Shown: positions 6,924-49,508 of the stretch, in pieces
How positions within the stretch are numbered: position 1 is the stretch's first letter
How the letters are laid out: each line of letters begins with the position of its first letter
Source of the DNA: Candidatus Cloacimonadota bacterium
GTDB taxonomy: Bacteria; Cloacimonadota; Cloacimonadia; G963667145
Length of the DNA: 64,000 nt
Direction: 5' to 3'
Assembly: GCA_963667145.1 (NCBI GenBank)
Contig: OY762943.1
Span: 49,576 to 113,575, forward strand
Notes under the pieces: model-generated
The model's database searches: none
Told to the model about the DNA's origin: nothing
What the model saw: only the letters and a program-made list of their open reading frames with translations
Position numbers and translations under genes: made by a program

Positions 6924-7777
6924 AAGATTACCTTGCTCAAATTATATTCCAAGATGTCGCAAGCTCCCCATTTTTTCAGCTTTGGCAATAAATCGGGGAC
7001 GTCTTTGGTGTCCAAAGTGATTTTTACGGCATAGCCAGCGTCTCTTGCCAGTGGCATCACTGTAGGCGATTTGAGGCACGGAAGTCTATCGATAATCTCT
7101 TTTTTGTCGTTGGGAATGTTCATCTCTATCATCGATTTGTTTCTTCCCAAAAGAATTGCCTCAAAAAGCATTTTCATCTCCATAATCTTTTCGTGCTTCC
7201 ATGGGTCGTCCAAAGCTGAATTTGATGCCACGAAGTTGGTGGCTGATTGTACCAGAGTGCCGACTATTTTTAAGTTGTTGTCTCTTAGGGTGTTACCTGT
7301 AGAGGTGTTGTCGATAATCATATCTGCGTCTTCGGGCGGATACACTTCTGTTGCTCCGTGCACCGTCAGAAATTTGTAGTTGAAGCCTTGTTTATCCAGC
7401 CAATCGGTGGCAATCTTTTTGTATTCGGAAACTACGATGATTTCTCTATTTTTTAGCTCCTCAAGCGAATAGTTTTCTGGAATGGCAGCCACTATTTTCA
7501 CGGGGTTAAGTCCCAAAGGCAAAATGGTGGTGATTTGGTCGGAAACTTCCGATTCCATTATCCAGTCTTCGCCACTAAATCCGATGTCGTGTCTGCCAAA
7601 AGCCAAAAGGTTGGCGATATTGCGAGGTTTCATGATTTTCACGATGAGGTCGTCTTTATTTGTTGCCGGACGCAAACCTCTGCCACTGAGGGTCAGGCTA
7701 ATTCCTGCTTCAGCCAGCAAATCTTTTACTTGATCAAAAATTCTTCCTTTCGGCAAAACTAAGTTTATTTTTTTCAT
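6920..7777 (-). CDS. hisG: ATP phosphoribosyltransferase, long form
   Basis: LVLPKGR, GATEV, DMIIDNTSTGNTLRDN, and a C-terminal regulatory domain. Confidence 0.94.
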   Translation of the reverse strand: MKKINLVLPKGRIFDQVKDLLAEAGISLTLSGRGLRPATNKDDLIVKIMKPRNIANLLAFGRHDIGFSGEDWIMESEVSDQITTILPLGLNPVKIVAAIPENYSLEELKNREIIVVSEYKKIATDWLDKQGFNYKFLTVHGATEVYPPEDADMIIDNTSTGNTLRDNNLKIVGTLVQSATNFVASNSALDDPWKHEKIMEMKMLFEAILLGRNKSMIEMNIPNDKKEIIDRLPCLKSPTVMPLARDAGYAVKITLDTKDVPDLLPKLKKWGACDILEYNLSKVIL

Positions 7778-8261: not shown

Positions 8262-9035
8262 ATGAAGAAAATAAGTTTTTTAATTTTTATTTTAACTTTG
8301 TGTGTTGGCTCACTTTGGAGTTTTGAGTTCGTGAGGGTAAAAGGTACTACTTTTACTAGAGGAGACAGTGAAGGAGATGATGATATAGTACCAAAGCACG
8401 AAGTTTTTGTTAGGAGTTTTTATATTTCAAAATATGAAGTTACTCAAAAAGAATGGAATAGAGTTATGAAATATAATAATTCTCCAATCAAGGGCGATAA
8501 TTATCCTGTTTGCAATGTTTCTTGGTGGGATGCTGTTACATTCTGTAATAAATTGAGTATTAAAGAGGGCTTGAAACCCTGTTATGATTTATATAAAGGT
8601 GAAATGATTAAATGTAATTATGAAGCTTCTGGTTATAGATTGCCTTCAGAGGCTGAGTGGGAGTTGGCAGCTATCGGAGGAAGTGATAAAAACCGTAAAA
8701 ATTTTTCTGGAAGTGATGATATAGAAAAGGTGGCTTGGACGAATGATTCATTACCTCATCCTGTGGGAACAAAAAAAGCGAATGAACTTGGTATTTTTGA
8801 TATGAGTGGTAATGTTTCTGAGTGGTGCAACGATTGGTATGATAAGAGTTATTATAAACTTGCGGTTCTCAAAAATGAAAATCCCACGGGTTCTAATTAT
8901 GGGTATTATAGAGTAATTAGAGGTGGAAGCTATAAGGAATTACAGAGTTATGCAAGTCCTTCTTTTAGGAGTTTTAACAGACCTAAGAAACGTCTTGAAG
9001 CAAAAGGCTTTAGAGTTGTTAGGTCTTTTTTATAG
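8262..9035 (+). CDS. secreted FGE-sulfatase (SUMF1)-fold protein
   Basis: Signal peptide; YEVTQ, PVCNVSWWDA, RLPSEAEWE, DMSGNVSEW, RGGS and GFRVVR motifs. Confidence 0.88.
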   Translation: MKKISFLIFILTLCVGSLWSFEFVRVKGTTFTRGDSEGDDDIVPKHEVFVRSFYISKYEVTQKEWNRVMKYNNSPIKGDNYPVCNVSWWDAVTFCNKLSIKEGLKPCYDLYKGEMIKCNYEASGYRLPSEAEWELAAIGGSDKNRKNFSGSDDIEKVAWTNDSLPHPVGTKKANELGIFDMSGNVSEWCNDWYDKSYYKLAVLKNENPTGSNYGYYRVIRGGSYKELQSYASPSFRSFNRPKKRLEAKGFRVVRSFL

Positions 9036-10340
9036 TTGATGAAAATATTAGAAAGATATTTGCTTAGAGAATCTCTCAAACCATTTATTGGTGCTTTGGG
9101 AGTTTTTACGTCGTTGTTTTTGATAGATATGATTATCAGCAAGCTGAGTCTTATCATTCAAAAGAAGCTCTCTTTCATGACAGTGGTTAGTCTGTTCGGA
9201 TATAGTTTGCCTGCTATGGTGGCACTCACTATTCCCATGGCGATACTATTCGCTTCTATTATGACTTTCGGGAAGTTGTCGATTGACAACGAATTAACAG
9301 CGATAAAATCTTGTGGTGTCAGCATATATCGGTTGATGAGACCGTTGTATCTTTTGGTTATTTTGTTTTCGTGTTTTATGTTGTATTTCAATCACATTGT
9401 TTTGCCCGATAGCAACTATCTTTCCAGAGATTTGCTTCTGCATATAGCGTATCGAAATCCTATCAGCAATATCAAAACGGGTGTGTTCAATAAAAATCAA
9501 AACATTTCCGATTTGGTGATTTTCGCTGGAGGCAAAGAAGACAAATATTTGTTGGATGTGCTTATTTATAACAAGGGTCAACGGGAGACTTTTCAGATAG
9601 TTAGTGCGAAATACGGTGAGATTGATTTGGCTAATAACGGAAACGATATGGTTGCCAGACTTTATGATGGAGAAATCCACGAGAAGAGCATCAAAAATCC
9701 TGGCGATTATCGAGTTGTTAAGTTCAAAAAATTCAATTTCAATATTTTCGGTGGAGCCAATCAGGGTGACTTGCGACATACACTTGGCGATAGAGAAATG
9801 AACACCAAGATTATGTTGAACAGAATTAAGGAGAACGAAAAAATCATTCATGTGGCGGATTCTTTGCGACAAATCCATGACGACAGATTGCAGACGATGG
9901 AGAAGGGCGAAAAGTACAATTCCGTGACCAGCCTGATGCTTCAGGAATCTAACAAAATGAAGCGTTACCAAGAGTACAACTATGCCTATTGGGTAGAAAT
10001 CCACAAGAAAAACGCTTTGGCTTTTGCTTGCATCATTTTTCTCTTTTTGGGAGTTCCAGTTGGACTGATGGCCAAAACTAGCGGAGTTGGAGCGGCTTTC
10101 GGATTTAGCATGGTAGTTTTTGTGTCTTATCATTCTATGTTGCTGGGTGGAGAAGAGTTAGCCGACAGAGGGTTTATAGCTCCTTGGCTTGCTATGTGGC
10201 TCGCTAATATTGTGCTTGTGATATTGGGGACGTTCCTTACTTGGAAGTCTCGCCACGACACCAACGCTTTCGATTCGGTTAGATTTAAGGTGCGGATGTA
10301 TTTCAAAAAGGTATTTAAAGCTAAAAAGGAATTGAGTTGA
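9036..10340 (+). CDS. lptF: LPS export ABC transporter permease LptF
   Basis: LptF/G architecture: 3 TM, periplasmic domain, 3 TM; DNELTAIKSCGVS motif; tandem with a paralog. Confidence 0.85.
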   Translation: MMKILERYLLRESLKPFIGALGVFTSLFLIDMIISKLSLIIQKKLSFMTVVSLFGYSLPAMVALTIPMAILFASIMTFGKLSIDNELTAIKSCGVSIYRLMRPLYLLVILFSCFMLYFNHIVLPDSNYLSRDLLLHIAYRNPISNIKTGVFNKNQNISDLVIFAGGKEDKYLLDVLIYNKGQRETFQIVSAKYGEIDLANNGNDMVARLYDGEIHEKSIKNPGDYRVVKFKKFNFNIFGGANQGDLRHTLGDREMNTKIMLNRIKENEKIIHVADSLRQIHDDRLQTMEKGEKYNSVTSLMLQESNKMKRYQEYNYAYWVEIHKKNALAFACIIFLFLGVPVGLMAKTSGVGAAFGFSMVVFVSYHSMLLGGEELADRGFIAPWLAMWLANIVLVILGTFLTWKSRHDTNAFDSVRFKVRMYFKKVFKAKKELS

Positions 10341-11432: not shown

Positions 11433-12347
11433 CTAAATAAATAGATTTTCCAGAATAGAATAGATTTCTTGCAGGTCTGTGCTGAGATTGATTTTTTCTC
11501 GTGCTTCCGCACTTTTTTTGATGCCCTTGGTGTATTTTGCTATGTGAGACCGCATCATGACAATGCCTTTGGTTTCGCCGTAGTGTTCGATAGATAACGT
11601 ATAATGACGCTTTATAGTGTCGATTTTCTCTTGATTTGTGGGAGTTTCTGTGGAGAAAATCCAAGGATTGCCGATAGCCCCTCTTCCAATCATAACACTG
11701 TCACAAGCAGTTGCCTTTTTCATTTTTTCTATGTCATCTTTTTCAAAAATGTCACCGTTCCCGATAACTGGAATTGTGGCTTTATTTTTCAAGATTTTGA
11801 TGTGCTCCCAATTGCTCATTCCAGAAAACATTTGGTTTCTCGTGCGTGGGTGCAAGATTAGAGCGTCCGCTCCAGATTTTTGCATAAGTATGCCAAAATC
11901 CAAGTAGTTGATAGTGGAGAAGCCCGAGCGGAATTTGACAATTAGAGGAACATCTTCGGGCAAGGCGAGTTTGCAGGCTTCAACGATTTTAGAAGCCAAT
12001 TCTGGTGTATCCATCAGGGCTGAGCCAGCACCAGTTTTTATCACTTTTTTAACGGGGCAACCCATATTTAGGCAGAGGAAATCCATTTTTGGCAAGATGG
12101 AAATAGCTTTTTGGAAATGGGCAGGAACACTGCCGAAGAGTTGGATTCCGATTGGCGATTCGACCTCAGAGGTTTGAGCATAGGGCAAACTGGTTTTCGG
12201 ATTGTAGGTTAATCCCGCAGCACTTACCATCTCGGTGGTGAGTACATTCACACCGTTTTCTTTGGCGACAATTCTGTATGGGTAGTCCGTAAATCCCGCC
12301 AACGGAGCCAACCAAGTGGTGTTCTTACAAAGTTCGTCAATATGCAT
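11433..12347 (-). CDS. dusB: tRNA-dihydrouridine synthase
   Basis: LAPLAGFTD, QLFGS, NMGCP, HPRTR, IGNGD, MIGRGAIGNPW. Confidence 0.92.
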   Translation of the reverse strand: MHIDELCKNTTWLAPLAGFTDYPYRIVAKENGVNVLTTEMVSAAGLTYNPKTSLPYAQTSEVESPIGIQLFGSVPAHFQKAISILPKMDFLCLNMGCPVKKVIKTGAGSALMDTPELASKIVEACKLALPEDVPLIVKFRSGFSTINYLDFGILMQKSGADALILHPRTRNQMFSGMSNWEHIKILKNKATIPVIGNGDIFEKDDIEKMKKATACDSVMIGRGAIGNPWIFSTETPTNQEKIDTIKRHYTLSIEHYGETKGIVMMRSHIAKYTKGIKKSAEAREKINLSTDLQEIYSILENLFI

Positions 12348-12366
12348 TTTTGTAGAGATGAAGTCG

Positions 12367-12738
12367 TTATTTTTTTTGAGATATCTTGAATGTTATAAAG
12401 AGGTATAACTCATAGATATACAAAGAGATTAGAGGCAAAATCAAGCCAACACCGAAAATCAGTATTTCTATTTTAATGTATTTGGCGACGAAATAGCAAT
12501 AGAGCACCAATATCAAAAATCTGCCTCCGAATCCCAAGACAATGCTTTTTTTTATGTTTGTTGCTGGAGACAGGGCAAGCATTGTGCTGATAGCCATCGA
12601 AATTAGAAAAAATAAGCCACCGATTAAGCCCAAAAATAAGCTTAATCTAGATGGCAAAACAAGACTTGGGCAAGCGAGAACAACGCTCAGCAAACAAACT
12701 TTTCCCAGATACAGCAGATGTTTTTTATTTGATGGCAT
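12367..12738 (-). CDS. small 4-TM membrane protein (possibly AtpI-like)
   Basis: 123 aa with four hydrophobic segments; overlaps the bactofilin end. The family call is tentative. Confidence 0.6.
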   Translation of the reverse strand: MPSNKKHLLYLGKVCLLSVVLACPSLVLPSRLSLFLGLIGGLFFLISMAISTMLALSPATNIKKSIVLGFGGRFLILVLYCYFVAKYIKIEILIFGVGLILPLISLYIYELYLFITFKISQKK

Positions 12739-13078
12739 TCTGTCCCATGGTGCAGTTGCCGTTGAGGATTGCTCCCGGCTCTACTATCAGGGTTACAGCT
12801 TTTATATCTCCAGTGATTTTGGCACTTTTTTTGACTTCGATAGTGTTCTTGGCGGTGATTCCACCGTTGATGATGCCAGCGATGATGCAATTGCTACAGT
12901 CCAAATTTCCGTCAATTTTCCCACTGGTGGTCACGGAGATTAGAGATTTGCAGGTGATATTTCCCACAAGGTCACCATCGACTTTTATGCCGTTTTCGCA
13001 ACTTACGTCTCCAGTGATTTTCAAATCTTTTCCGATGATAGAGGACACTTCCACTTCTCTATTTTTTTCTTTAATCAT
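12725..13078 (-). CDS. bactofilin (polymer-forming cytoskeletal protein)
   Basis: SSIIGKDLKITGDV...VDG...G.I.G.I.A...V.GDI.A..L.VEPGA.LNGNCTM beta-helix pattern. Confidence 0.92.
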   Translation of the reverse strand: MIKEKNREVEVSSIIGKDLKITGDVSCENGIKVDGDLVGNITCKSLISVTTSGKIDGNLDCSNCIIAGIINGGITAKNTIEVKKSAKITGDIKAVTLIVEPGAILNGNCTMGQNAIK

Positions 13079-13082
13079 GTGC

Positions 13083-13745
13083 TTACTCTCCTTTAAAATT
13101 CTTTATAAAATCTTTTGGATTTTGGTTAATGTCGCTTTGTTGGATTTCGTAGTGCAGGTGTGGATTGGTGCTATATCCCGAATTTCCCACCGAGCCTATG
13201 GTTTGCCCTTTCTTCACAAAAGTTTCCACGTTTACGCAGATAGAGTCCAAATGAGCATAGACTGTTTTGAAGCCGTTGAGATGGTTGATAATAATGGTTT
13301 TCCCGAAATATGTATCCGCTTCAGCTTTTTCCACAACTCCCGATGCTCCCGCAAAAACGGAAGTTCCGAGTTTGCCCGCAAAATCAAGAGCTTTATGTTT
13401 CTCGTTGAAATCTCTGCTTGTTTTATAAGGTTTGGCAACAGGCAAAAAATCGGGATAAAAATTTTCTGGTGCACTCAGTTTACTACCATTTTTTTTGTTA
13501 GCATGAGGCTCTTCGGCTATATATTTTTCTAGCGAAAGTCGCAACTTTTCTAACTTTAGATTGTTGTTTAATTTGTTGTCCTGAAGTAGATTTTGACGAT
13601 AAGAGTCTAATTGTTTGGTCAAAATCTCGATTTGGGCTTTGCTCTCATCCAATTTATTCAGAAGGAGGTAGCAAGAAATCAGGCTTCCCAAGAAAAAAAT
13701 GGAAAGCAAGGAAAACAGTAAGATGCTAAAGTGCTTATTTCTCAT
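13083..13745 (-). CDS. membrane-anchored M23-family metallopeptidase
   Basis: N-terminal TM and coiled coil; HKALD (HxxxD) and GYSTNPHLHYE (HxH). Confidence 0.9.
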   Translation of the reverse strand: MRNKHFSILLFSLLSIFFLGSLISCYLLLNKLDESKAQIEILTKQLDSYRQNLLQDNKLNNNLKLEKLRLSLEKYIAEEPHANKKNGSKLSAPENFYPDFLPVAKPYKTSRDFNEKHKALDFAGKLGTSVFAGASGVVEKAEADTYFGKTIIINHLNGFKTVYAHLDSICVNVETFVKKGQTIGSVGNSGYSTNPHLHYEIQQSDINQNPKDFIKNFKGE

Positions 13746-14598
13746 TGCTTAACAGTTTTAGAAGTTCTTCCTTTTGTGATTTTGACTGATAAGAGAAAAT
13801 TATTTTGCCTCTGCTTCCGGTTCCTTTGATTTTCACCTGAGCGTTGTAGATGCTTTTCAGAGATTCCTCAGCAACGGAAAAATCCAATTGAGCGTTCTTA
13901 TTTTTTACGACAGTGGCGGAAGATTTCACCAAAGTTTCACTGGCTCTAACTGAGAGTTCTTTTTGAGCGATGGTGGCAGCCAGAGCTTCTCTTTGTTCAG
14001 GTTCGGCTTGCATTATCACCTTTGCGTGTCCCGTGCTGATTTTTCCTTGAAGCAACAATTTTTTGATGGAATCTTGCAACGAGAGCAATCTCAAGAAGTT
14101 GGAAATGGTTGTGCGGTCTTTGCCCATTGCAGTGGCGATTTCGCCGTGTGTATAGTTGAACTCCTCTTGGAGCCTTTTGTAGCTGGCGGCTTCTTCTATC
14201 GGGTTCAGATTTTCTCTTTGAACGTTTTCGATAATAGCCAGTTGGAGCATCTGCTGATTGGTGGCTTGCCTTACCACCACTGGCACTGTTTTGAGGTTAG
14301 CCAATTTAGCTGCTTGAAGCCTTCTTTCTCCAGCGATTAGCTCATAATGCCCACCATCTTGCTCGGTGACGATAAGAGGCTGAATAATGCCATTTTCGAT
14401 AATGGAGTCACGCAACTCTTCCAATTTATCTTGGTCAAAATGCCTTCTGGGTTGATAGCGATTTGGGAAAACTAAATTGATGTTTGCTTCGTTTACTGTT
14501 GCGTCTTCCGAAGCGGATGAACTTTCTCTGTCTGCAGATTTGAAATCTACGGGCTTAATCAGAGCTTCTAAGCCTCTTCCCAGTTTCTTTTTGCTCAT
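13735..14598 (-). CDS. parB: chromosome partitioning protein ParB/Spo0J
   Basis: LGRGLEAL, NRYQPR, IAGERR, ENVQRENL, HTH. Confidence 0.95.
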   Translation of the reverse strand: MSKKKLGRGLEALIKPVDFKSADRESSSASEDATVNEANINLVFPNRYQPRRHFDQDKLEELRDSIIENGIIQPLIVTEQDGGHYELIAGERRLQAAKLANLKTVPVVVRQATNQQMLQLAIIENVQRENLNPIEEAASYKRLQEEFNYTHGEIATAMGKDRTTISNFLRLLSLQDSIKKLLLQGKISTGHAKVIMQAEPEQREALAATIAQKELSVRASETLVKSSATVVKNKNAQLDFSVAEESLKSIYNAQVKIKGTGSRGKIIFSYQSKSQKEELLKLLSNEK

Positions 14599-15350
14599 CT
14601 CTCGACCACCTCTTTCACCAAGCTTAAGTAATCTTGAGCACCTTTGGAAGTGATGGCATAGTCAAAAATGGTTTGTCCAAAACTTGGGGATTCGCTGAGT
14701 TTCACATTTCTAGCAATATAGGTTTTGAAGACTATGTCTCCAAAGAAACTTTTTACATCCTCTTCAACTTGTTGGCAGAGGTTCAGTCTTTTGTCGTACA
14801 TGGTGAGCAAAACGCCCAATATTTCCAAATCTTTGTTCAGATTATTTTTTATCAGATTAACCGTGTTCAGCAGTTGGCTTACACCTTCCAAAGCATAGTA
14901 TTCACACTGGATTGGCAAAAGGACGTGCGTGCTGGCTGTCAGAGCGTTGATGGTGAGCAAACCCAAGGACGGAGGACAATCGATGATGATGTATTCGTAA
15001 TTGTCCAAGATGGGAGCCAAAGCGTTTTTCAGCTTCTGTTCGCGTGCATACTCTTTCACCAACTCAATCTCTGCACCTGTGAGGTTAATGTCAGCCGGTA
15101 TCACATCGAGCTTTTTGTAGTTCGACTTCACGATGCAAGACTTAATGTTTTTCTCACCGATGAGCATCTTGTAAACTTGGCTGTTAACTTTGTTTTTGTT
15201 TATTCCTATTCCAGAAGTGGAGTTCCCTTGCGGGTCTAAATCTATAAGCAAAGTTTTCTTTTCGTAAACGCCCAAAGCTGCAGACAAATTCACAGAGGTT
15301 GTTGTTTTGCCTACGCCACCTTTTTGATTGACGACCGATACTACTTTCAT
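14595..15350 (-). CDS. parA: chromosome partitioning ATPase ParA/Soj
   Basis: NQKGGVGKTTT, DLDPQGN, DCPPSLG, QCEYYALEG. Confidence 0.96.
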   Translation of the reverse strand: MKVVSVVNQKGGVGKTTTSVNLSAALGVYEKKTLLIDLDPQGNSTSGIGINKNKVNSQVYKMLIGEKNIKSCIVKSNYKKLDVIPADINLTGAEIELVKEYAREQKLKNALAPILDNYEYIIIDCPPSLGLLTINALTASTHVLLPIQCEYYALEGVSQLLNTVNLIKNNLNKDLEILGVLLTMYDKRLNLCQQVEEDVKSFFGDIVFKTYIARNVKLSESPSFGQTIFDYAITSKGAQDYLSLVKEVVER

Positions 15351-16974: not shown

Positions 16975-17051
<77 letters not shown>

Positions 17052-17098
17052 ATCGATTTGCAATTTGTTGGATGTGCGTAGTGGTTGTCAATGTTATT

Positions 17099-17343
17099 GT
17101 TACCTTTCTTTTTTTTGTGATAAAAAAAAGAAAGAGTAACGCCAAAGAAAAAAAATCAAAATCCTAAGCCTCGCCTCTAAAATATTTAACTCCTTCGTAT
17201 TATTGTAGGCTCAACCTGTGAAGTCAGATTAGAAATTCTGCAAGAGACGACAGGTATCGCACAATAATTGACTTCAGTCGTTTTCTATTTTCACGAGGCT
17301 CGACTTGATGGATTTGTAGCCACCTCGCCCCGAGCGAAGCACT
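17099..17343. repeat. structured dispersed repeat, element A copy 1
   Basis: Core 17156-17343 matches 38130-38313 in direct orientation: 6 substitutions in ~165 aligned nt, one variable loop and one 5-nt indel. Terminal hairpin at 17099-17140. Confidence 0.9.
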
Positions 17344-17365
17344 CTTTGGGTTGAGTTGGGTTTGA

Positions 17366-17561
17366 CTTTTGGCATAATTTAGCTAAACAACAAAGTATTA
17401 TTAGAGAAGTGCAAAACAAATTTTAGATTAGCAGGTAATAGTCGTTCACTCGGAGATGTCTCTACTCAGAGTTAGCAAAACTGCATCTCACGACCCTGTT
17501 TTAGCGATTTTATGACAAAAGGAGGTTTTTTGGTTCGTTTTTTTTCGGCAAAAAAATGAAC
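17366..17561. repeat. structured element B (same architecture as A, opposite orientation)
   Basis: Nested stems 17366-77/17510-21, 17382-87/17500-05, 17441-45/17490-94, 17453-58/17484-89. Terminal hairpin GTTCG-T8-CGGC-A7-TGAAC. Single copy in the window. Confidence 0.55.
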
Positions 17562-17632
17562 ATCGAAAATAGATACCCGTTTTTCAAGCACAAGAGTACT
17601 AAGAAACTGATTAACGTTGTGCTTGATAGACT

Positions 17633-17721
17633 ACGGGCATGAGGATTAGAGGTGCAGGAATCCCAAGCATACCTCATTCTCGTTTTCTTTCTTTTCTCAT
17701 TCCCGCAAAAGCGGGAATCCA
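17633..17721. repeat. REP/dRS3-like palindromic repeat cluster
   Basis: ATTCCCGC-AAAA-GCGGGAAT at 17699-17718; 17633-17682 is an inverted homolog of 38340-38389. Confidence 0.75.
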
Positions 17722-17844
17722 TGGGAATAGGATAAAGATAATTGCATAATTCTAAGATGAACAAACAAATATCTTGACCTCTCTTCCACATAAATTCTTA
17801 TGACATAAATTAAATTTCAGCAGAAAAGTGGGGTGATGATACTT

Positions 17845-38084: not shown

Positions 38085-38313
38085 GTTCTTTCCCTTTGAG
38101 TGACCAAAGCGAAAGAACCAAAGGTAAATTCAAAATCCTAAGCCTCGCCTCTAAAATATTCAACTCCTTCGCATTATTGTAAACTCAACCTGTGAAGTCC
38201 GAGAAGCAATTTGTTAGAGAGACGACAGGTATCGCACAATAATTGACTTCAGTCGTTTTCTATTTTCACGAGGCTCAACTTGAAGGATTTGTAGCCACCC
38301 CGAGCGAAGCACT
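38085..38313. repeat. structured dispersed repeat, element A copy 2
   Basis: Core 38130-38313 matches 17156-17343. Terminal hairpin GTTCTTTCCCTTTG-agtgac-CAAAGCGAAAGAAC. Confidence 0.9.
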
Positions 38314-38324
38314 TTTTGTGCTGT

Positions 38325-38403
38325 GGATTCCCGCTTCCGCGAGAATGAGGAGTGCTTAAACTTCTTGCTATTCTAATCCTCATGCCCGTGAAAGTGTGAA
38401 TCC
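38325..38403. repeat. inverted pair of REP/dRS3-like units
   Basis: GGATTCCCGCTTCCGCGAGAATGAG ... CTCATGCCCGTGAAAGTGTGAATCC; shares exact 18-nt and 11-nt blocks with 17633-17682. Confidence 0.75.
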
Positions 38404-38558
38404 ATTCTTTCTTCCTTTCCCCAAAATTATCACTTATCCATTTTCAATTATCAATTGCCTCTTGTTTTATTTCCTTGCCAAATTTTTAAGAATTACGATT
38501 TTGACTGTAACGAATTTAGTTCAACAGAAAGAAGTATAATTGTATATAGGAGAGAGAA

Positions 38559-43981: not shown

Positions 43982-44945
43982 GATTGTAATTCTAATTTTT
44001 CTTTTTGTCTTTTCTCTGCTATTTGCTTCAGAGGTTGATTCTTTGGAATTTTTTCAAGAAATCAGTGATAGTTTGCATATTGAGAAAATTGGGGAAGAAG
44101 AGGATTTATTTACTAGCAAAAGAATCTATGTTAATTATTCTGGTTATGTATCTGTGCTACATGTCGCAGGTTGGGATGGTTTTTCAGGTTGGGATGTATT
44201 AGAGGATAATTTAACAGATCAGAGATCACGATTTGAGTTTGGCTATAATTTTGGACCTGAATGGTGGAAACATTTTTCTATTTCTTATAGTCCTAATGAA
44301 GATTTATTTTCTGATTTTATGGGAGGTGGAAAGAGTTCATCTATAGAAGTTTATTCATTGGAAATGATTTTTGGAAAAAGTATAAAATATTTGCCTGAAA
44401 TTGTATATTGTGAAGAGAATTTTAAGGCTACAGGAGTTGTAACAGAAGCAAATAGGTTGTATAAAAGAGGAAATCTTTTAGCGGTTGGAGAGACTTTTGA
44501 TGCAGGATTAAAATTTTCTTATTTGGCCGCAGTTTGGAGTTTTTGGAAGTTTTTCTATGTTGGTATTGGAGAATCCCTTTTTGAATTTACTGGTAATAGA
44601 CTTATTAATGTTGATGTTTTTTATATGACAAAACATTACTCGGTAGCAGAAAATTTTGATTACGAAGGAGGGGTAGTTTTATGTGGGTTTCGAAACGATT
44701 TTCATGTTACAAAATATTTAACTTTTCCTGTAAACCTTGGTTTCATTGCTTCTACTGGCGTAGGCATTTATTACAAAACAGGGTATGAAGTAGGGGTACA
44801 GTGTAATTTTTACAAAGATTGCTATGTTAAGTATTGGATAGGATCTTATACATGGGAAATAAGTTCTTTTGATTTTGATAGTGAAATTGTTGATACAGAT
44901 AAGGGTACTACAACAGGTTTGGAGTTTTCAATAGGAATATATTGA
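43974..44945 (+). CDS. putative outer-membrane beta-barrel protein
   Basis: Signal peptide, alternating aromatic/Gly strands, C-terminal GLEFSIGIY beta-signal-like end. Confidence 0.6.
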   Translation: MNKIVILIFLFVFSLLFASEVDSLEFFQEISDSLHIEKIGEEEDLFTSKRIYVNYSGYVSVLHVAGWDGFSGWDVLEDNLTDQRSRFEFGYNFGPEWWKHFSISYSPNEDLFSDFMGGGKSSSIEVYSLEMIFGKSIKYLPEIVYCEENFKATGVVTEANRLYKRGNLLAVGETFDAGLKFSYLAAVWSFWKFFYVGIGESLFEFTGNRLINVDVFYMTKHYSVAENFDYEGGVVLCGFRNDFHVTKYLTFPVNLGFIASTGVGIYYKTGYEVGVQCNFYKDCYVKYWIGSYTWEISSFDFDSEIVDTDKGTTTGLEFSIGIY

Positions 44946-45001
44946 CAATGAGTGATTTCCCAAGATTGTATTGATAAATTGATTTTAAGGAGCAAAGATA
45001 G

Positions 45002-46222
45002 ATGAACAAGATAATTATGGCAAATCCGATAGTGGAGATGGATGGTGACGAGATGACTCGTGTGGTTTGGCCTATGATAAAGGACATTCTGATTAAGCCG
45101 TATGTGGAGCTGAACACGGAGTATTACGATTTGCACATCAAAAATAGGGACAACACGGATGACGAGGTGACTTTTGCGTCTGCTGAGGCTGTGAAAAAGC
45201 ACAAGGTTGGGGTGAAGAATGCGACGATTACGCCGAATGCCGCCAGAGTGAAAGAGTACGATTTGAAAAAAATGTGGAAGAGTCCGAACGGAACTATTCG
45301 GGCGATTTTGGATGGCACAGTTTTCCGCAAGCCGATAATCGTGGGCAATGTGCGTCCGTCTGTTCGTAGCTGGAAAAAGCCGATAATCATTGGGCGTCAC
45401 GCTTATGGCGACGTTTATAAGAACGCTGAGATTTTCGTGAACAAGCCTGGTAAGGCTGAGGTTGTTTTCACGGATGATAAAGGTGTGGAGACTCGGGAAC
45501 TGATTGTAGAGTTCGATGGCAAATCCACTGGCGTTTTGCAAGGAATGCACAATCTGACCGCTTCCATCACTTCTTTCGCTATCAGCTGTTTTGAGTATGC
45601 AATAGACCAAAAAGTCGATTTGTGGTTTTCGGCAAAAGATACGATTTCCAAGACCTACGATCATCACTTTATGGATGTGTTCCAAGAGTTGTATGACGAA
45701 AAATATCGCGAGAAATTTTCTGCTTTGGGCATAGAATATCGCTACTCTTTGATAGACGGTGCGGTTGCCAAAGTGATGCAGTCCGAGGGCGGAGTGCTCT
45801 GGGCTTGCAAAAATTACGATGGCGATGTGATGAGCGATATGTTGGCGTCCGCCTACGGCTCTTTGGCGATGATGAGTTCGGTGTTGGTGTCGCCTCACGG
45901 ATATTTCCTTTATGACGCTGCTCACGGCACGGTGCAAGATTTGTACTATTTGTACCTGAAAGGTGCGGAGGTCTCCATCAATTCCACGGCACTCATCTAT
46001 GCGTGGAGTGGTGCTTTGGGCAAGCGTGGTCAGTTGGATGGCAACGATGAGTTGGTTGATTTTGCTCGGAAGCTGGAACAAGCTGTCGTGCAGACTATAG
46101 AAGAAGGTGTGATGACTGGCGAATTAGCTCCGTTTGCAGAATCTGATAATCTCAAAGTCGTGAATGGCAAAGAGTTTTTGGAAGAAATAGGGAAGAGATT
46201 GGCGAGTTTGATGAATGTCTGA
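45002..46222 (+). CDS. icd: isocitrate dehydrogenase, type II (IDH1-like), predicted NAD-preferring
   Basis: MDGDEMTR, KNATITP, WKSPNGTIR, GRHAYGD, NYDGDVMSD, AAHGTV. Asp-Leu at the coenzyme determinant. Confidence 0.93.
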   Translation: MNKIIMANPIVEMDGDEMTRVVWPMIKDILIKPYVELNTEYYDLHIKNRDNTDDEVTFASAEAVKKHKVGVKNATITPNAARVKEYDLKKMWKSPNGTIRAILDGTVFRKPIIVGNVRPSVRSWKKPIIIGRHAYGDVYKNAEIFVNKPGKAEVVFTDDKGVETRELIVEFDGKSTGVLQGMHNLTASITSFAISCFEYAIDQKVDLWFSAKDTISKTYDHHFMDVFQELYDEKYREKFSALGIEYRYSLIDGAVAKVMQSEGGVLWACKNYDGDVMSDMLASAYGSLAMMSSVLVSPHGYFLYDAAHGTVQDLYYLYLKGAEVSINSTALIYAWSGALGKRGQLDGNDELVDFARKLEQAVVQTIEEGVMTGELAPFAESDNLKVVNGKEFLEEIGKRLASLMNV

Positions 46223-47072
46223 TAAATTGTTCGAGTGCGTCCCCAATATTTCTGAGGGACGAGACGCTTCTGTGGTTGAGGCAATTGCCAAGGCGATAGC
46301 TGATGCAGGAGCAAATTTGTTGGACTATTCCGCGGATATTGACCACAATCGCTCTGTTTTCACGATATCAGGTACAGAGCAAACCATAAAGAACGCAGTT
46401 CGCAGGATGATGGCTTTGGCTATAGATTTGGTGGATATGCGAACTCACGAGGGTGTGCATCCGTGCGTGGGTGCGTTGGACGTGTTGCCGATAGTTCCAT
46501 TGCAAGGTGCGTCAATGTTGGATGCTATTCGATTGATTAGGGAACTTGGCGAGATTTTGTGGCGAGAGTTTGCGGTGCCTTCTGTGGTTTACGATTATTC
46601 TGAAAACAGAAATAGACTGGCGAGTTTCCGCAAAAGTGGTTTCTGTGGTTTGCAAGATGGTAGCTACGATTTTGGTGATAAAAAACATTTCACAGCTGGA
46701 GCAACTGCGATTTCCGCACGTGACTTTCTGATAGCCTACAATGTCAATTTGCTTGGTGGAGATTTGGTTTTAGCCAAAAAAATTGTCAAAGCTCTGCGAG
46801 AGAGCAGTGGGGGATTGGTTGGAGTTAAAGCGTTGGGAATCTATTTGCCTCGGCAGGACATTGTGCAGGTTTCTATGAATTTGACCGACTACAAACAGAC
46901 CTCGATGCGACAAGTTTACGATGCGATTTGTGAGATGATTGCAGGAAAAAATATCGTTCCTCAATCTGAAGTGATTGGCTTAATCCCAGAAGATGCTGTA
47001 ACAAAAGAGGATGTTGAAGTGTTGGGATTGCAGGGAGTTAAGAAGTTGAGTTTGACAGGGGAATTAGTTTAA
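46215..47072 (+). CDS. ftcD: glutamate formimidoyltransferase
   Basis: ECVPNISEGRD, DHNRSV, H.GVHPCVGALDV, LIAYNVNL, QVSMNL. Confidence 0.88.
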   Translation: MSDKLFECVPNISEGRDASVVEAIAKAIADAGANLLDYSADIDHNRSVFTISGTEQTIKNAVRRMMALAIDLVDMRTHEGVHPCVGALDVLPIVPLQGASMLDAIRLIRELGEILWREFAVPSVVYDYSENRNRLASFRKSGFCGLQDGSYDFGDKKHFTAGATAISARDFLIAYNVNLLGGDLVLAKKIVKALRESSGGLVGVKALGIYLPRQDIVQVSMNLTDYKQTSMRQVYDAICEMIAGKNIVPQSEVIGLIPEDAVTKEDVEVLGLQGVKKLSLTGELV

Positions 47073-48124
47073 ATTATTTTCCAATGCCCTGTTTTGTCGC
47101 TTCCTACTCGCTCAATTTTTCCGTCTTCCTTTAGTTTTCTTAATCTTCTTTTTGCTGTGCTTAAGCTTATTTGTAAATTTTCGCTTATTTCGGTTGCTGT
47201 TATTTTGTTGTTTAATGTTATTAACTGAAGTACAGTGTCATTTGCAGTATTTATTTTTGAATATACAGTGTCGGATTTTGGTTTTATAGTTTCATTTTGT
47301 GTGTTTACAGTGTCAAATTTGACATGCATTTTCCTGTTTTTAAGCAAATTATTTTCACCAAGCAATAAGTTTGAGAGAAATTCAATCAGAAATTTTTCAG
47401 TTTTGTGAATTTTTTTGGATAAATCCTCATAGTTAGCTCTCACAAGTGCATTGCGGAAATACCATGAATGTTTTTCAAACAAATCATTGTCTACATTTTT
47501 AAAACCGAGTTTACGAAGATATTTAATAAGAAAAATTGCTGTTGTTCGTGTGTTTCCTTCTCCAAAAATATGAATTTGCCACAAATTGCTGACGAAATAC
47601 GCAATGTGTTCGATAATCTCTTTTTGATTTAATCCTTTGTAGCTGAATTTTTTTTCTTGTTCAAAGTCGAATTCTAAAGTTGCTTTTAAACTTTCGGCAC
47701 TTGCATATAGAACGGTTTCCCCGTTCAATATCCATTCTTTTTTTGTAATATTGTAATCGCGAATTTTACCCGCGTAGCTGTAGATATCTTGGAATAGTCG
47801 TCTATGAATAGTTAGATATTCGATTGGAGAAAATGTGAAAGTCTGTTCACTCAAAATTTCAACAATTCGTGCAGAGACCTTGTCAGCTTCTTCTGTCCTA
47901 TCTTTGCCTTCTCTTACAAAACTTTTCTTGTAATAATTGTTTATCAGGTTTTTTACTTCATAAATGGTTATATTTCCTTCGATATTTTGCTTAGCTTTTT
48001 CTAGCAAATAAACTGAAGGTGTTAGCCCATCTACTTTTTGCAATCCGATAGCAGTTTTCCAAATCTTTGCTTTTTCCGCTTTGGTCGGCTCGCTTTGTCT
48101 GATATATTCGTCGAAATTATACAT
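47069..48124 (-). CDS. Fic-domain protein with N-terminal VbhA-like segment and C-terminal HTH
   Basis: HIFGEGNTRTT Fic-like motif, AIGLQKVDGLTPS N-terminal segment, C-terminal ISLSTAKRRL HTH. Confidence 0.85.
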   Translation of the reverse strand: MYNFDEYIRQSEPTKAEKAKIWKTAIGLQKVDGLTPSVYLLEKAKQNIEGNITIYEVKNLINNYYKKSFVREGKDRTEEADKVSARIVEILSEQTFTFSPIEYLTIHRRLFQDIYSYAGKIRDYNITKKEWILNGETVLYASAESLKATLEFDFEQEKKFSYKGLNQKEIIEHIAYFVSNLWQIHIFGEGNTRTTAIFLIKYLRKLGFKNVDNDLFEKHSWYFRNALVRANYEDLSKKIHKTEKFLIEFLSNLLLGENNLLKNRKMHVKFDTVNTQNETIKPKSDTVYSKINTANDTVLQLITLNNKITATEISENLQISLSTAKRRLRKLKEDGKIERVGSDKTGHWKII

Positions 48125-48790
48125 TTAATCTATCTCTGTTCCGCCCCACTCAACGACAACAAATCCTTCTCTTTTGAAATTTGTCAGTTTTTGTGGTTTA
48201 ATTTTCATCGGCTTTTCTAATGGCTTGTACACCATAAAAACGCGTAGGATGTTGTCAGGTTTTGGTTTTATCGATAGCTTGGCAAGATTTTCGTATTCTT
48301 CTCCTGCAAAATGGATTAAGTTGTATTCATTTTCTTGCATGAGGGGTAGCCAATACACTATAAACTCGTTGTATTCTTTGGGTTGCAATCCCAATTCGGT
48401 TAGCGATTTTTCCAAGAATTCCACCGTTTCACTGCCCTTCACCACAAATCCTTCTTCGATGTTCCATTCGTGGTCGGAGATGCTTTCCCAAAATAGATAC
48501 GAGTACTCCTTGCCGTCAGAGGTGTGGAGAGTGCCATCTGGCTCGGCGGTAACTTCCCAGCCATCATTGTATTCGGGATATGTGCAAAACAATTCTCCGT
48601 CGCAATTCAATTGAACCTTGATTTTTGTTTGAGCTTCTGGATAGAGATAAATGACTGGTTTTGCTACTCGTTGATCTCCTCTCATGCGAGGGCGGTTGCT
48701 ATCGTGATTTGTGTCAATTTCACTGAATGTTAGTAGAATTGTTGTAAGAATAACCAAAATAACGAGAACTAAAATTTTATTGGATTTCAA
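48125..48790 (-). CDS. conserved hypothetical protein (KPVIYLYP...VVEWGG type)
   Basis: N-terminal signal/anchor; KPVIYLYP, YLFWE, FIVYWLP, LRVFM and VVEWGG motifs; TTG start. Confidence 0.75.
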   Translation of the reverse strand: MKSNKILVLVILVILTTILLTFSEIDTNHDSNRPRMRGDQRVAKPVIYLYPEAQTKIKVQLNCDGELFCTYPEYNDGWEVTAEPDGTLHTSDGKEYSYLFWESISDHEWNIEEGFVVKGSETVEFLEKSLTELGLQPKEYNEFIVYWLPLMQENEYNLIHFAGEEYENLAKLSIKPKPDNILRVFMVYKPLEKPMKIKPQKLTNFKREGFVVVEWGGTEID

Positions 48791-48800
48791 ATTTTTTTTC

Positions 48801-49508
48801 CTACAAATTATCTTTAATTGAGTTTAAAAGTATCTCAACACCTTTTGAGACAGAGTATTCAATTAATTTAGTTGAACTTGAAGTCATAATATTTTTTAAG
48901 GTTTGAAAACTATATTTTCTAATTTTAGCCCAAATTTGGCATATTTTGTGGAATGTTTCAGCTTTAGTTAGTTTTCCTATGTTATCTTTTAAATTGCTTG
49001 AATCTTTTAGAATTTCAACAGTTTCATCAGATTGTTTTTCATTTTCTATAGTAGCTATGATTGAATTTATATGTTTCTCTATTGCTAGTTGTTGTTTGAA
49101 GTTATAAGGTTTAATATCTGCATCATTATCTAGAAGTTTAAGATTTTCGAAAAATTCATTTTGATATCCTTTAAGTATTGGGTCTTCATCGAAATAATCA
49201 GGTACTTTATCGTAATCTTCAATAATTTTTAACCAACTATCAAATTGTAGTTTTAAGTTTTCTATTGGAGCACTGAGAGTAGTATTTTCATTATTGAATG
49301 GGCTCATTGGTTTTTTAGATGCAATGTATGTTATTTTTGAAGCTTTGTATTCATATTTTGTTACTTCGAAATAGAAATCAGAATCAATATCTTTATCAAC
49401 AAAACTTAAGATGCAATCCTTTTTTTTACGAAATTTTATGAAATTAGATTTATTTTTGAGAAAAGGCTCTAATTCTATCAATACTTGTAATGGAATATTT
49501 TTTTTCAT
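48801..49508 (-). CDS. hypothetical protein, strongly AT-rich
   Basis: 235-aa open frame with AAGAAGAG-like RBS; no family recognised. Confidence 0.7.
   Translation of the reverse strand: MKKNIPLQVLIELEPFLKNKSNFIKFRKKKDCILSFVDKDIDSDFYFEVTKYEYKASKITYIASKKPMSPFNNENTTLSAPIENLKLQFDSWLKIIEDYDKVPDYFDEDPILKGYQNEFFENLKLLDNDADIKPYNFKQQLAIEKHINSIIATIENEKQSDETVEILKDSSNLKDNIGKLTKAETFHKICQIWAKIRKYSFQTLKNIMTSSSTKLIEYSVSKGVEILLNSIKDNL

Follow-up and report, generated by a model that had tools for sequence, protein, structure and literature searches.

A hairpin-forming sequence of roughly 250 nt occurs twice, on the same strand, in a 64-kb stretch of contig OY762943.1 from a Candidatus Cloacimonadota bacterium (GCA_963667145.1, positions 49,576 to 113,575; hereafter the window). 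The chromosome of 1.54 Mb carries tens of copies. We consider, with moderate confidence, that the element is a non-coding, non-autonomous dispersed repeat that is moved and shuffled as DNA, similar to repetitive extragenic palindromic (REP) doublets forming hairpins (REPINs) and neisserial intergenic mosaic elements (NIMEs), and that its fold-back is the selected feature. The multi-copy dispersal, the modular variants, the conservation of the fold across species and the lack of transcription signals of its own are supported directly by the data presented here. A preliminary description, made from the sequence of the window, had suggested an undescribed structured non-coding RNA or a non-autonomous mobile element. 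The second of these is favoured over a gene-like RNA because the element exists in tens of copies with deletion and module-swap variants, and the lack of a promoter or terminator common to the copies makes a stand-alone RNA gene unlikely.

Structure of the two window copies

Copy A spans positions 17099-17350 and copy B positions 38085-38320. Both have the same order of parts: an AT-rich terminal hairpin, an A-rich spacer, an imperfect rod of about 157 nt whose tip is hypervariable, and a tail, C-rich on the plus strand and G-rich on the minus strand. A repeat search aligned the copies in an 85-nt block that is 96% identical and an 86-nt block that is 90% identical, and BLASTN aligned them at 89% identity over 194 nt, loop included. 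The near-identity of the cores noted in the preliminary description holds for the rod, which differs by six substitutions when the apical loop and a 5-nt indel are excluded. The indel is within the right-hand tail. The divergent 18/19-nt segment (17226-17244 in copy A, 38200-38219 in copy B) is the apical loop of the predicted fold, as had been proposed, and is the most variable part family-wide. A third copy was not found in the window by BLASTN or by a covariance model. The count of two is right for the window and falls short for the genome, where the k-mer depth over the core is 30-60x.

The terminal hairpin of copy A (17099-17140) is predicted to pair GTTACCTTTCT8 with A8GAAAG-A-GTAAC around the loop GTGAT, with one bulged A. 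That of copy B (38085-38118) is predicted to pair GTTCTTTCCCTTTG with CAAAGCGAAAGAAC around the loop AGTGAC, with one C-C mismatch. The two hairpins differ in sequence and each is followed by CAAAG, in agreement with the preliminary description. The left edge of copy A is sharp (a depth step from 1x to 3x at 17097-17099), and a second genomic copy carries an identical hairpin arm (GTTACTTTTCTT…) behind an unrelated flank; the leading hairpin is therefore part of the unit. This other copy also rules out that the arm was derived from the target. The spacer of copy A (17141-17158, GCCAAAGAAAAAAAATCA) is U-rich on the minus strand, and copy B has CAAAGGTAAATTCA in the same place (38119-38132). Between species the spacer is nearly identical, CAAAGGTAAATTCAAAAT in copy B and CAAAAGGTAAAATCAAAAT in L097, a syntenic locus of a sister species.

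The rod occupies 17159-17315 in copy A and 38133-38290 in copy B, both assigned to the minus strand. In copy A it was delimited by folds, depth and covariation and consists of helices of 5-10 bp, starting with the outer helix AAATCC...GGATTT, with fixed internal loops and a free tip. Depth dips over this tip (17226-17244), where many family variants are found at 17233-17241. The rod of copy B, with its variable tip at 38200-38219, was delimited by folds and by a depth of up to 56x the flank. The nested stems proposed earlier were recovered in their places. Compared with shuffled sequences, the folding of copy A has z = -2.7 on the plus strand and -3.6 on the minus strand, and that of copy B has z = -2.8 and -3.4, respectively. 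The proposed pseudoknot did not hold up. The crossing pair TGAAGTCA/TGACTTCA (17219-26 / 17269-76) exists, but a perfect 8-bp helix arises in 24% of dinucleotide shuffles; moreover, the helix has 7 bp in copy B and is not kept in either L097 homologue.

The right-hand tail of copy A (17316-17350) reads GTAGCCACC(TCGCC)CCGAGCGAAGCACTCTTTGGG and ends in ...GCACTYTTTGGG. It is G-rich and hairpin-forming on the minus strand and has a depth of about 8x; in the alignment, its minus-strand motif GGGGUGG(C)UA recurs in the L097 copies. Over the tail of copy B (38291-38320) depth drops to about 6x, and to about 3x further right. Past the right-hand limit given in the preliminary description, the repeat goes on in the form of other modules.

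Copy number and family variants

Four sequencing runs contain the element. They behave like DNA, with flat depth over genes and spacers. Copy number was read as k-mer depth, which gave the tens of copies mentioned above. Flank depths in these runs are 1144, 397, 45, and about 3100. The summed unitig depths over 17264-17317 are 47,676, 12,670, 1,340, and 175,734, or 42x, 32x, 30x, and 56x the flanks, sums that can overcount up to about 2-fold as unitigs overlap by k-1. At an 85% threshold, peak depth is 61x for copy A and 56x for copy B, with a dip over the apical loop. Single unitigs have 2, 4, and 9 times the single-copy depth, i.e., whole multiples. Extrapolation of two copies per 64 kb to the 1.54-Mb chromosome gives about 48 per genome. 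From this figure and the unitig depth, with the overcount allowed for, the family is estimated at roughly 20-60 copies in the chromosome.

The unitig data also include variants of the element. Internal deletions are found at 17213>17303, 17156>17258, and 38109>38218. In another variant the inner rod is swapped for a different palindrome (TCTGACCACTAAAAT...ATTTTAGTGGTCAGA), and a diverged subfamily (…CATGAGGCTCAATTT…) and a head-to-head junction are present as well. Contigs of all runs end at 17152/17157 and 17323 (17152 and 17323 in Logan), as expected of a repeat.

Conservation of the fold in sister species

The genes that adjoin the two copies have relatives in complete genomes. Copy B adjoins an aconitase gene whose product shares 93% identity with its counterpart in a complete Candidatus Cloacimonadota metagenome-assembled genome (OY762940.1, 1.59 Mb). 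For the xanthine permease beside copy A, relatives with 88, 77, 77, and 74% identity are encoded on four complete chromosomes of about 1.56-1.59 Mb. In the syntenic loci of four sister species (about 130 kb in all), neither BLASTN nor nhmmer found the core; BLASTN matched only the terminal hairpin and spacer, in L097 (a 77% relative). A covariance model built from copies A and B (R1) found two full-length homologues in L097, one at 14526-14725 (L097a; 41.7 bits, E 3e-11) and one at 15101-15275 (L097b; 25.7 bits, E 3e-6). With a refined model (R2), 223 kb of Cloacimonadota loci yielded no additional copies. L097a on its own folds into the same hairpin-plus-rod, and L097b is degenerate.

The structured nature of the element, claimed from the two window copies, is thus also borne out by compensatory changes in a sister species. 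In the model-fitted alignment, which leans towards structure, 96% of the cells are paired and 26 of 56 pairs are changed on both sides. None of 500 shuffles reaches the level of covariation of the rod, and no slid register comes near it. An independent alignment (MAFFT with RNAalifold) recovered the outer rod, with two-sided changes in 14 of 31 pairs. Six outer pairs in it differ consistently between the two species, e.g., C-G/A-U at the AAAUCC/GGAUUU helix and CC-GG/AA-UU in the helices that follow it. The outer 30 nt or so of both rod arms are the part best conserved between species, and they covary. The asymmetric internal loops (GUG opposite A) are unmoved. The homologous terminal hairpin of L097 (14494-14529) likewise keeps its pairing through two-sided changes (GTTC…GAAC vs. 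TTAC…GTAA) and shares the C-C mismatch. Taken together, these comparisons are suggestive of a rod fold that has been kept across species through compensatory changes.

Strand asymmetry

In all four elements (A, B, L097a, and L097b) the minus strand is predicted to be more stable, by 6.5-13 kcal/mol. In random 252-nt windows of this G-skewed region the plus strand is the favoured one, by 13.7 +/- 10.8, and only 3% of them reach -8 or lower. The rod has 10 G-U cells vs. 2 A-C cells, and each of the three substitutions that separate A from B at paired positions yields G-U on the minus strand. Relative to the GC-skewed strand, the two window copies and the two L097 copies are all oriented alike. 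We infer that the minus strand is probably the single-stranded form that matters. From the positive GC skew and the orientation of the genes, it is likely to be the leading-strand template.

Database searches and features sought in the element

The repeat family is most likely undescribed and lineage-restricted. The first part of this statement, already made in the preliminary description, follows from the lack of a match in Rfam or the other databases. In Rfam (release 15) only three tRNAs pass in the window, and nothing credible covers copy A (E<=10), copy B (E<=1), or the L097 homologues. An exact scan of 185,579 species genomes, the sister genome included, with a 22-mer of the core gave 0 matches. 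A 20-mer gave four matches in JGI metagenomes, all by chance inside unrelated coding sequence. Three core patterns gave 0 matches in IMG/VR, and a BLASTN of the unit gave no match in plasmid and phage collections. Besides the organism's own runs, the element was found in one wastewater metagenome, as a single 151-nt contig that is 88% alike. In a database of 5.8 billion predicted proteins, queried with an alignment of the longest open frame and with the concatenated open frames of both copies, no protein overlapped the element.

The element contains no open reading frame (ORF) longer than 44 aa. No promoter- or terminator-like sequence is common to the copies, the flanks beyond the repeat are unrelated, and a U-run does not follow the terminal hairpin on either strand, which rules out an intrinsic terminator. 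An attC site was rejected because the hairpin reads GTT...AAC, the wrong way round. 6S RNA, HEARO/omega-RNA, riboswitches, and ribozymes were rejected for lack of an Rfam signal. The preliminary description had reported no ORF, target duplication, or transposase nearby, and none was seen here either. By inspection, no direct repeats flank either copy or the rod, with the right boundary blurred by adjoining modules. The unit has no terminal inverted repeats (TIRs), as its left end (GTTAC.../GTTC...) and right end (...GCACTYTTTGGG) are dissimilar; the inverted arms of the rod are internal to the unit (17159-17315). The left and right end hairpins are unrelated in sequence, and the flanks at the left end (ATT, TAT, ATT, GTC) do not give a clear target motif. 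The window ORFs tested are all housekeeping genes or unknowns. No transposase, reverse transcriptase, TnpB, or IscB was found among them, and a PF01797-type protein was found neither among them nor in the annotation of the syntenic loci.

Adjoining repeat modules and dRS3-like hairpins

Right of copy A the repeat grades into other modules (17353-17640, 3-17x depth), and right of copy B is a module at 2-4x depth (approximately 38321-38463). The latter contains, directly after copy B, a 20-bp hairpin at 38327-38346 (ATTCCCGCTTCCGCGAGAAT) of the form ATTCCCGC-N4-GCGGGAAT, which fits the dRS3 consensus of Neisseria, ATTCCC-N8-GGGAAT. The same module is found inverted to the right of copy A (approximately 17633-17725), with its dRS3-like hairpin 350 nt from the copy, at 17699-17718 (ATTCCCGCAAAAGCGGGAAT). 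A module of this kind is a common sequel to the element: another genomic copy runs directly into the dRS3-like module (loose end at 17353), and the module is also behind both L097 homologues. In the window dRS3-like hairpins occur only beside the two copies, on the right side of each (17699 and 38327), and in the sister species only in the same two intergenic regions. L097a has dRS3-like sites on both sides (14439 and approximately 14726), the right-hand one degenerate. The sites in the sister species include L007 ~7286, L095 ~11810, and L097 ~14225, 14439, and 14864. A longer pattern, GGATTCCCGC-N4-GCGGGAATGAG, matched 16 unrelated contigs in IMG/VR, all high in GC (53-70%) and without the element; the motif may therefore be widespread.

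Several other features of these modules were observed. A good sigma-70-like promoter sequence (TTGAGT, 16 nt, TGgCATAAT) at 17351-17378 on the plus strand, among the modules right of copy A, faces rpsU. The module containing it (17353-17417) has about 15 genomic occurrences, and for this reason it may be a portable promoter. A 93-aa ORF on the minus strand (17510-17791) is nearly all inside repeat modules and matches no family; it is probably not a gene. At copy B, a promoter-like site on the minus strand (TTGATA-17-GATAAT, 38454-38426) points into the dRS3-like module and the element, and the ppdK terminator hairpin on the far side (38002-37977) is bidirectional, scoring as a minus-strand terminator too. 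A second palindromic repeat, CCCAAGCTNNAGCTTGGG, is not in the window and occurs at L007 9805 and 9870, L095 11630, and L097 14965 and 15074. In L097b the top of the AT-rich hairpin (15055-15100) is replaced by this palindrome (CCCAAGCTCCAGCTTGGG), and in L095 it is located about 60 nt downstream of a truncated hairpin arm, as if it inserted at hairpin tips.

Intergenic nests and turnover

Both copies are in intergenic nests of repeats, and the same nests bear repeats in relatives. The set of repeats in the ppdK-acn and tRNA-Val-rpsU spacers differs among the window, L007/L095, L096, and L097; L099 has no repeats there. The spacer between pbuX/tRNA-Val and rpsU measures 916 nt in the window. 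In the closest species it has 590 nt in one variant and 435 nt in another; the 74% relative has a repeat-free spacer of 323 nt, and that of L097 extends to 4.3 kb and contains an inserted gene and 1.5 kb of repeats. Of the terminal hairpin, the closest species has at the orthologous site exactly the left arm (GTTGCCTTTCT8), followed by other repeats. This remnant, together with the palindrome-replaced hairpin top in L097b, suggests that the element at the pbuX/tRNA-Val-rpsU site is older than the species split and that modules have been swapped at hairpin tips. In the sister genome, the spacer between ppdK and acn lacks the core but contains the dRS3-like module together with an element of the IS3 family. 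In three of the four loci the element is between two plus-strand genes.

Other features of the neighbourhood are given here for completeness. A perfect -35 box (TTGACA) is found upstream of the tRNA-Val gene (16975-17051), in the interval 17085-17052 on the minus strand, about 9 nt from the left end of the element. A second tRNA-Val(gac) locus at another place in the genome is evident from loose ends at 16975 and 17051. In one sister genome (L098) pbuX is bracketed by two copies of a 367-aa insertion sequence (IS) transposase (HTH_28/rve_3; 8513-9616 and 11565-12668, both on the minus strand). A tandem octamer, GGTCAGTC, is present in about eight copies at L007 ~7526-7592, in the ppdK-acn spacer of the sister genome. 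Two ENA contigs (L100 and L103) consist over their whole length of a large inverted duplication of the pbuX-rpsU region, which may be a fold-back artefact of assembly. Four window ORFs (44846-46081, 48125-48790, and 48801-49508 on the minus strand and 12651-13532 on the plus strand; 221-411 aa) gave no match in Pfam at E<=1e-3, and two of them adjoin a Fic/DOC-HTH gene (47069-48124).

Possible origins and functions

If the element is a repeat that multiplies as DNA, its movement could take either of two routes. An enzyme encoded elsewhere could mobilise it in trans by recognising the folded single strand, as REP-associated tyrosine transposases (RAYTs) do for REPINs. Alternatively, site-specific or homologous recombination could act at the flanking hairpins, as in NIMEs. 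Selection would keep the single-stranded fold-back, probably that of the window minus strand, and any RNA effect would be secondary, e.g., on read-through or antisense transcripts. The copies lie in a few intergenic nests in which modules are gained, lost, and swapped, often at hairpin tips. Several observations weigh against this explanation. Neither a transposition event nor an empty site with clean junctions was seen, and there was no insertion polymorphism, since both copies are present in all samples examined. The 64-kb window has no candidate for a mobilising gene (Y1/RAYT, IS110, or a DDE transposase with matching ends). The depth sums carry the overcount described above, and the covariation comes from effectively two lineages, as A and B are nearly identical and L097a and L097b share their outer sequence. 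The compensatory conservation of the hairpins and the strand preference are equally expected of a functional RNA.

Such a structured RNA family, read from the minus strand and multi-copy only incidentally, would comprise small RNAs or cis-acting elements such as stabilisers, processing or termination signals, or antisense regulators. We regard it as unlikely. The two-sided changes and the asymmetric internal loops conserved across species are what it predicts. It would also fit a minus strand that folds better against the local compositional trend, the 10:2 ratio of G-U to A-C, the three substitutions to G-U, and the U-rich tract that follows the rod on that strand. At copy B, the minus-strand promoter-like site and the bidirectional ppdK terminator could bound an antisense RNA of about 440 nt. 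The copies, however, share no promoter- or terminator-like sequence and their outer flanks are unrelated, the terminal hairpin lacks a U-run on either strand, and Rfam holds no relative. It is repeats, not RNA genes, that typically exist as tens of near-identical copies accompanied by deletion and swap variants. With plus-strand genes on both sides in three of four loci, passive read-through would yield the weaker-folding strand.

Readings that assign the element to a known class of transposon do less well. An ordinary miniature inverted-repeat transposable element (MITE), with the rod arms as long imperfect TIRs bound by the DDE transposase of an IS elsewhere in the genome, would share with the element its small size, its palindromic structure, its multiple copies, and its lack of coding capacity. 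The compensatory changes would then reflect both ends co-evolving with the transposase, which suits the conservation and covariation of the outer 30 nt of the arms; the leading hairpin would be either a neighbouring repeat in its own right or a preferred target. The sister genomes do contain elements of the IS3 family and of an IS481/IS3-like (rve-domain) type. This reading is quite improbable in our view: no direct repeat flanks the rod or the whole unit, the rod is not terminal (hairpin, spacer, and tail belong to the unit and are conserved across species), and the compensatory changes run along the whole rod rather than at its ends only. Neither the window nor about 220 kb of related loci contain an IS with matching ends. 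A palindrome-associated transposable element (PATE) of the IS200/IS605 type, possibly with a guide-RNA scaffold and mobilised by a Y1 (HUH) transposase as the preliminary description had suggested, would account for hairpins at or near both ends without TIRs or target duplication, for the strand preference of the fold, and for the co-orientation of the four copies (two in the window, two in L097) relative to the GC-skewed strand. In IS200/IS605 elements one TnpA binds the similar hairpins of both ends, and the left and right hairpins here are unrelated in sequence. There is also no clear conserved 4-5-nt target motif at the left end. IS608 and ISDra2 use the lagging-strand template, whereas the better-folding strand here is the probable leading-strand template. 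The window has no tnpA, tnpB, or iscB and no HEARO or IS605-related Rfam match, and we consider a PATE very unlikely. A more speculative view, which we doubt, makes the unit the cassette of an undescribed hairpin-directed recombination or guide system, a fold-back of about 160 nt selected on one strand. It would be bounded by the AT-rich terminal hairpin and the dRS3-like ATTCCCGC-N4-GCGGGAAT site, and a recombinase, or an RNA-guided enzyme using the rod as a scaffold, would move or rearrange it.

Comparison with known intergenic repeats

REPINs are REP doublets that form a hairpin in single-stranded DNA or RNA, with compensatory changes and a variable spacer; in Pseudomonas, 71 bp lie between two conserved 16-mers (PMC3116915). 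NIMEs have been reported only from Neisseria and consist of repeat sequence (RS) elements between dRS3 sequences with the consensus given above (PMC1797815). Like REPINs, the element described here is extragenic and non-coding, has tens to hundreds of copies, and forms a long hairpin with a tip, or spacer, less conserved than the arms. It also persists vertically in its lineage, here as an orthologous remnant in a sister species. Unlike REPINs, the unit of about 250 nt is about 2-3 times longer and has an extra terminal hairpin and a tail. No short self-palindromic REP is evident in its arms, although the outer arms are the most conserved part, and no RAYT was found in the 64 kb of the genome that the window makes visible.

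The likeness to NIMEs is in the mosaic arrays of modules of about 50-250 bp at syntenic intergenic sites, whose content varies among close relatives, and in the 20-bp hairpins fitting the dRS3 consensus that adjoin the element in both species. The differences are that this is another phylum, that the dRS3-like site in the window is on one side of each copy only, and that no Piv/IS110-type recombinase was found among the window ORFs. In addition, RS elements are defined by position only, in contrast to the element here, with a conserved fold of its own. In its workings the element appears most like REPINs, and in its life in arrays most like NIMEs, by analogy; membership in neither is established.

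Classical MITEs (Correia, RUP, ERIC) are also small, palindromic, non-coding, and dispersed. They differ in having TIRs at their true ends and usually a fixed target duplication, neither of which is seen here. The BOX elements of Streptococcus pneumoniae are modular boxA-boxB-boxC intergenic repeats of about 100-300 nt, in roughly 100 copies, with strong predicted secondary structure. To our knowledge, they show no signature of TIRs or target site duplications and have no known mobilising enzyme. They share with the present element the modular, intergenic, and structured character, but there is no sequence relationship and tandem boxB is not seen here. Thus the element belongs to a known kind, the structured intergenic dispersed repeats; it is real, undescribed, and structurally conserved, and its kind is not surprising.

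Implications

At a practical level, the presence of the repeat accounts for the breaks in short-read assemblies of these Cloacimonadota at sites of this kind. It also flags spurious ORFs, e.g., the 93-aa ORF at 17510-17791, and gives strain-level markers.

For the organism, an uncultured wastewater syntroph, roughly 1% of an otherwise streamlined 1.5-Mb genome is a structured repeat with a fold kept across species. This points to active mobilising machinery or to a host function for the hairpins. The dRS3-like hairpins and the fast-changing syntenic nests resemble NIME arrays, which were reported as specific to Neisseria, and a common hairpin-targeting recombination mechanism may thus be more widespread. 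If the cassette reading were true, NIME-type arrays and their machinery would exist far outside that genus.

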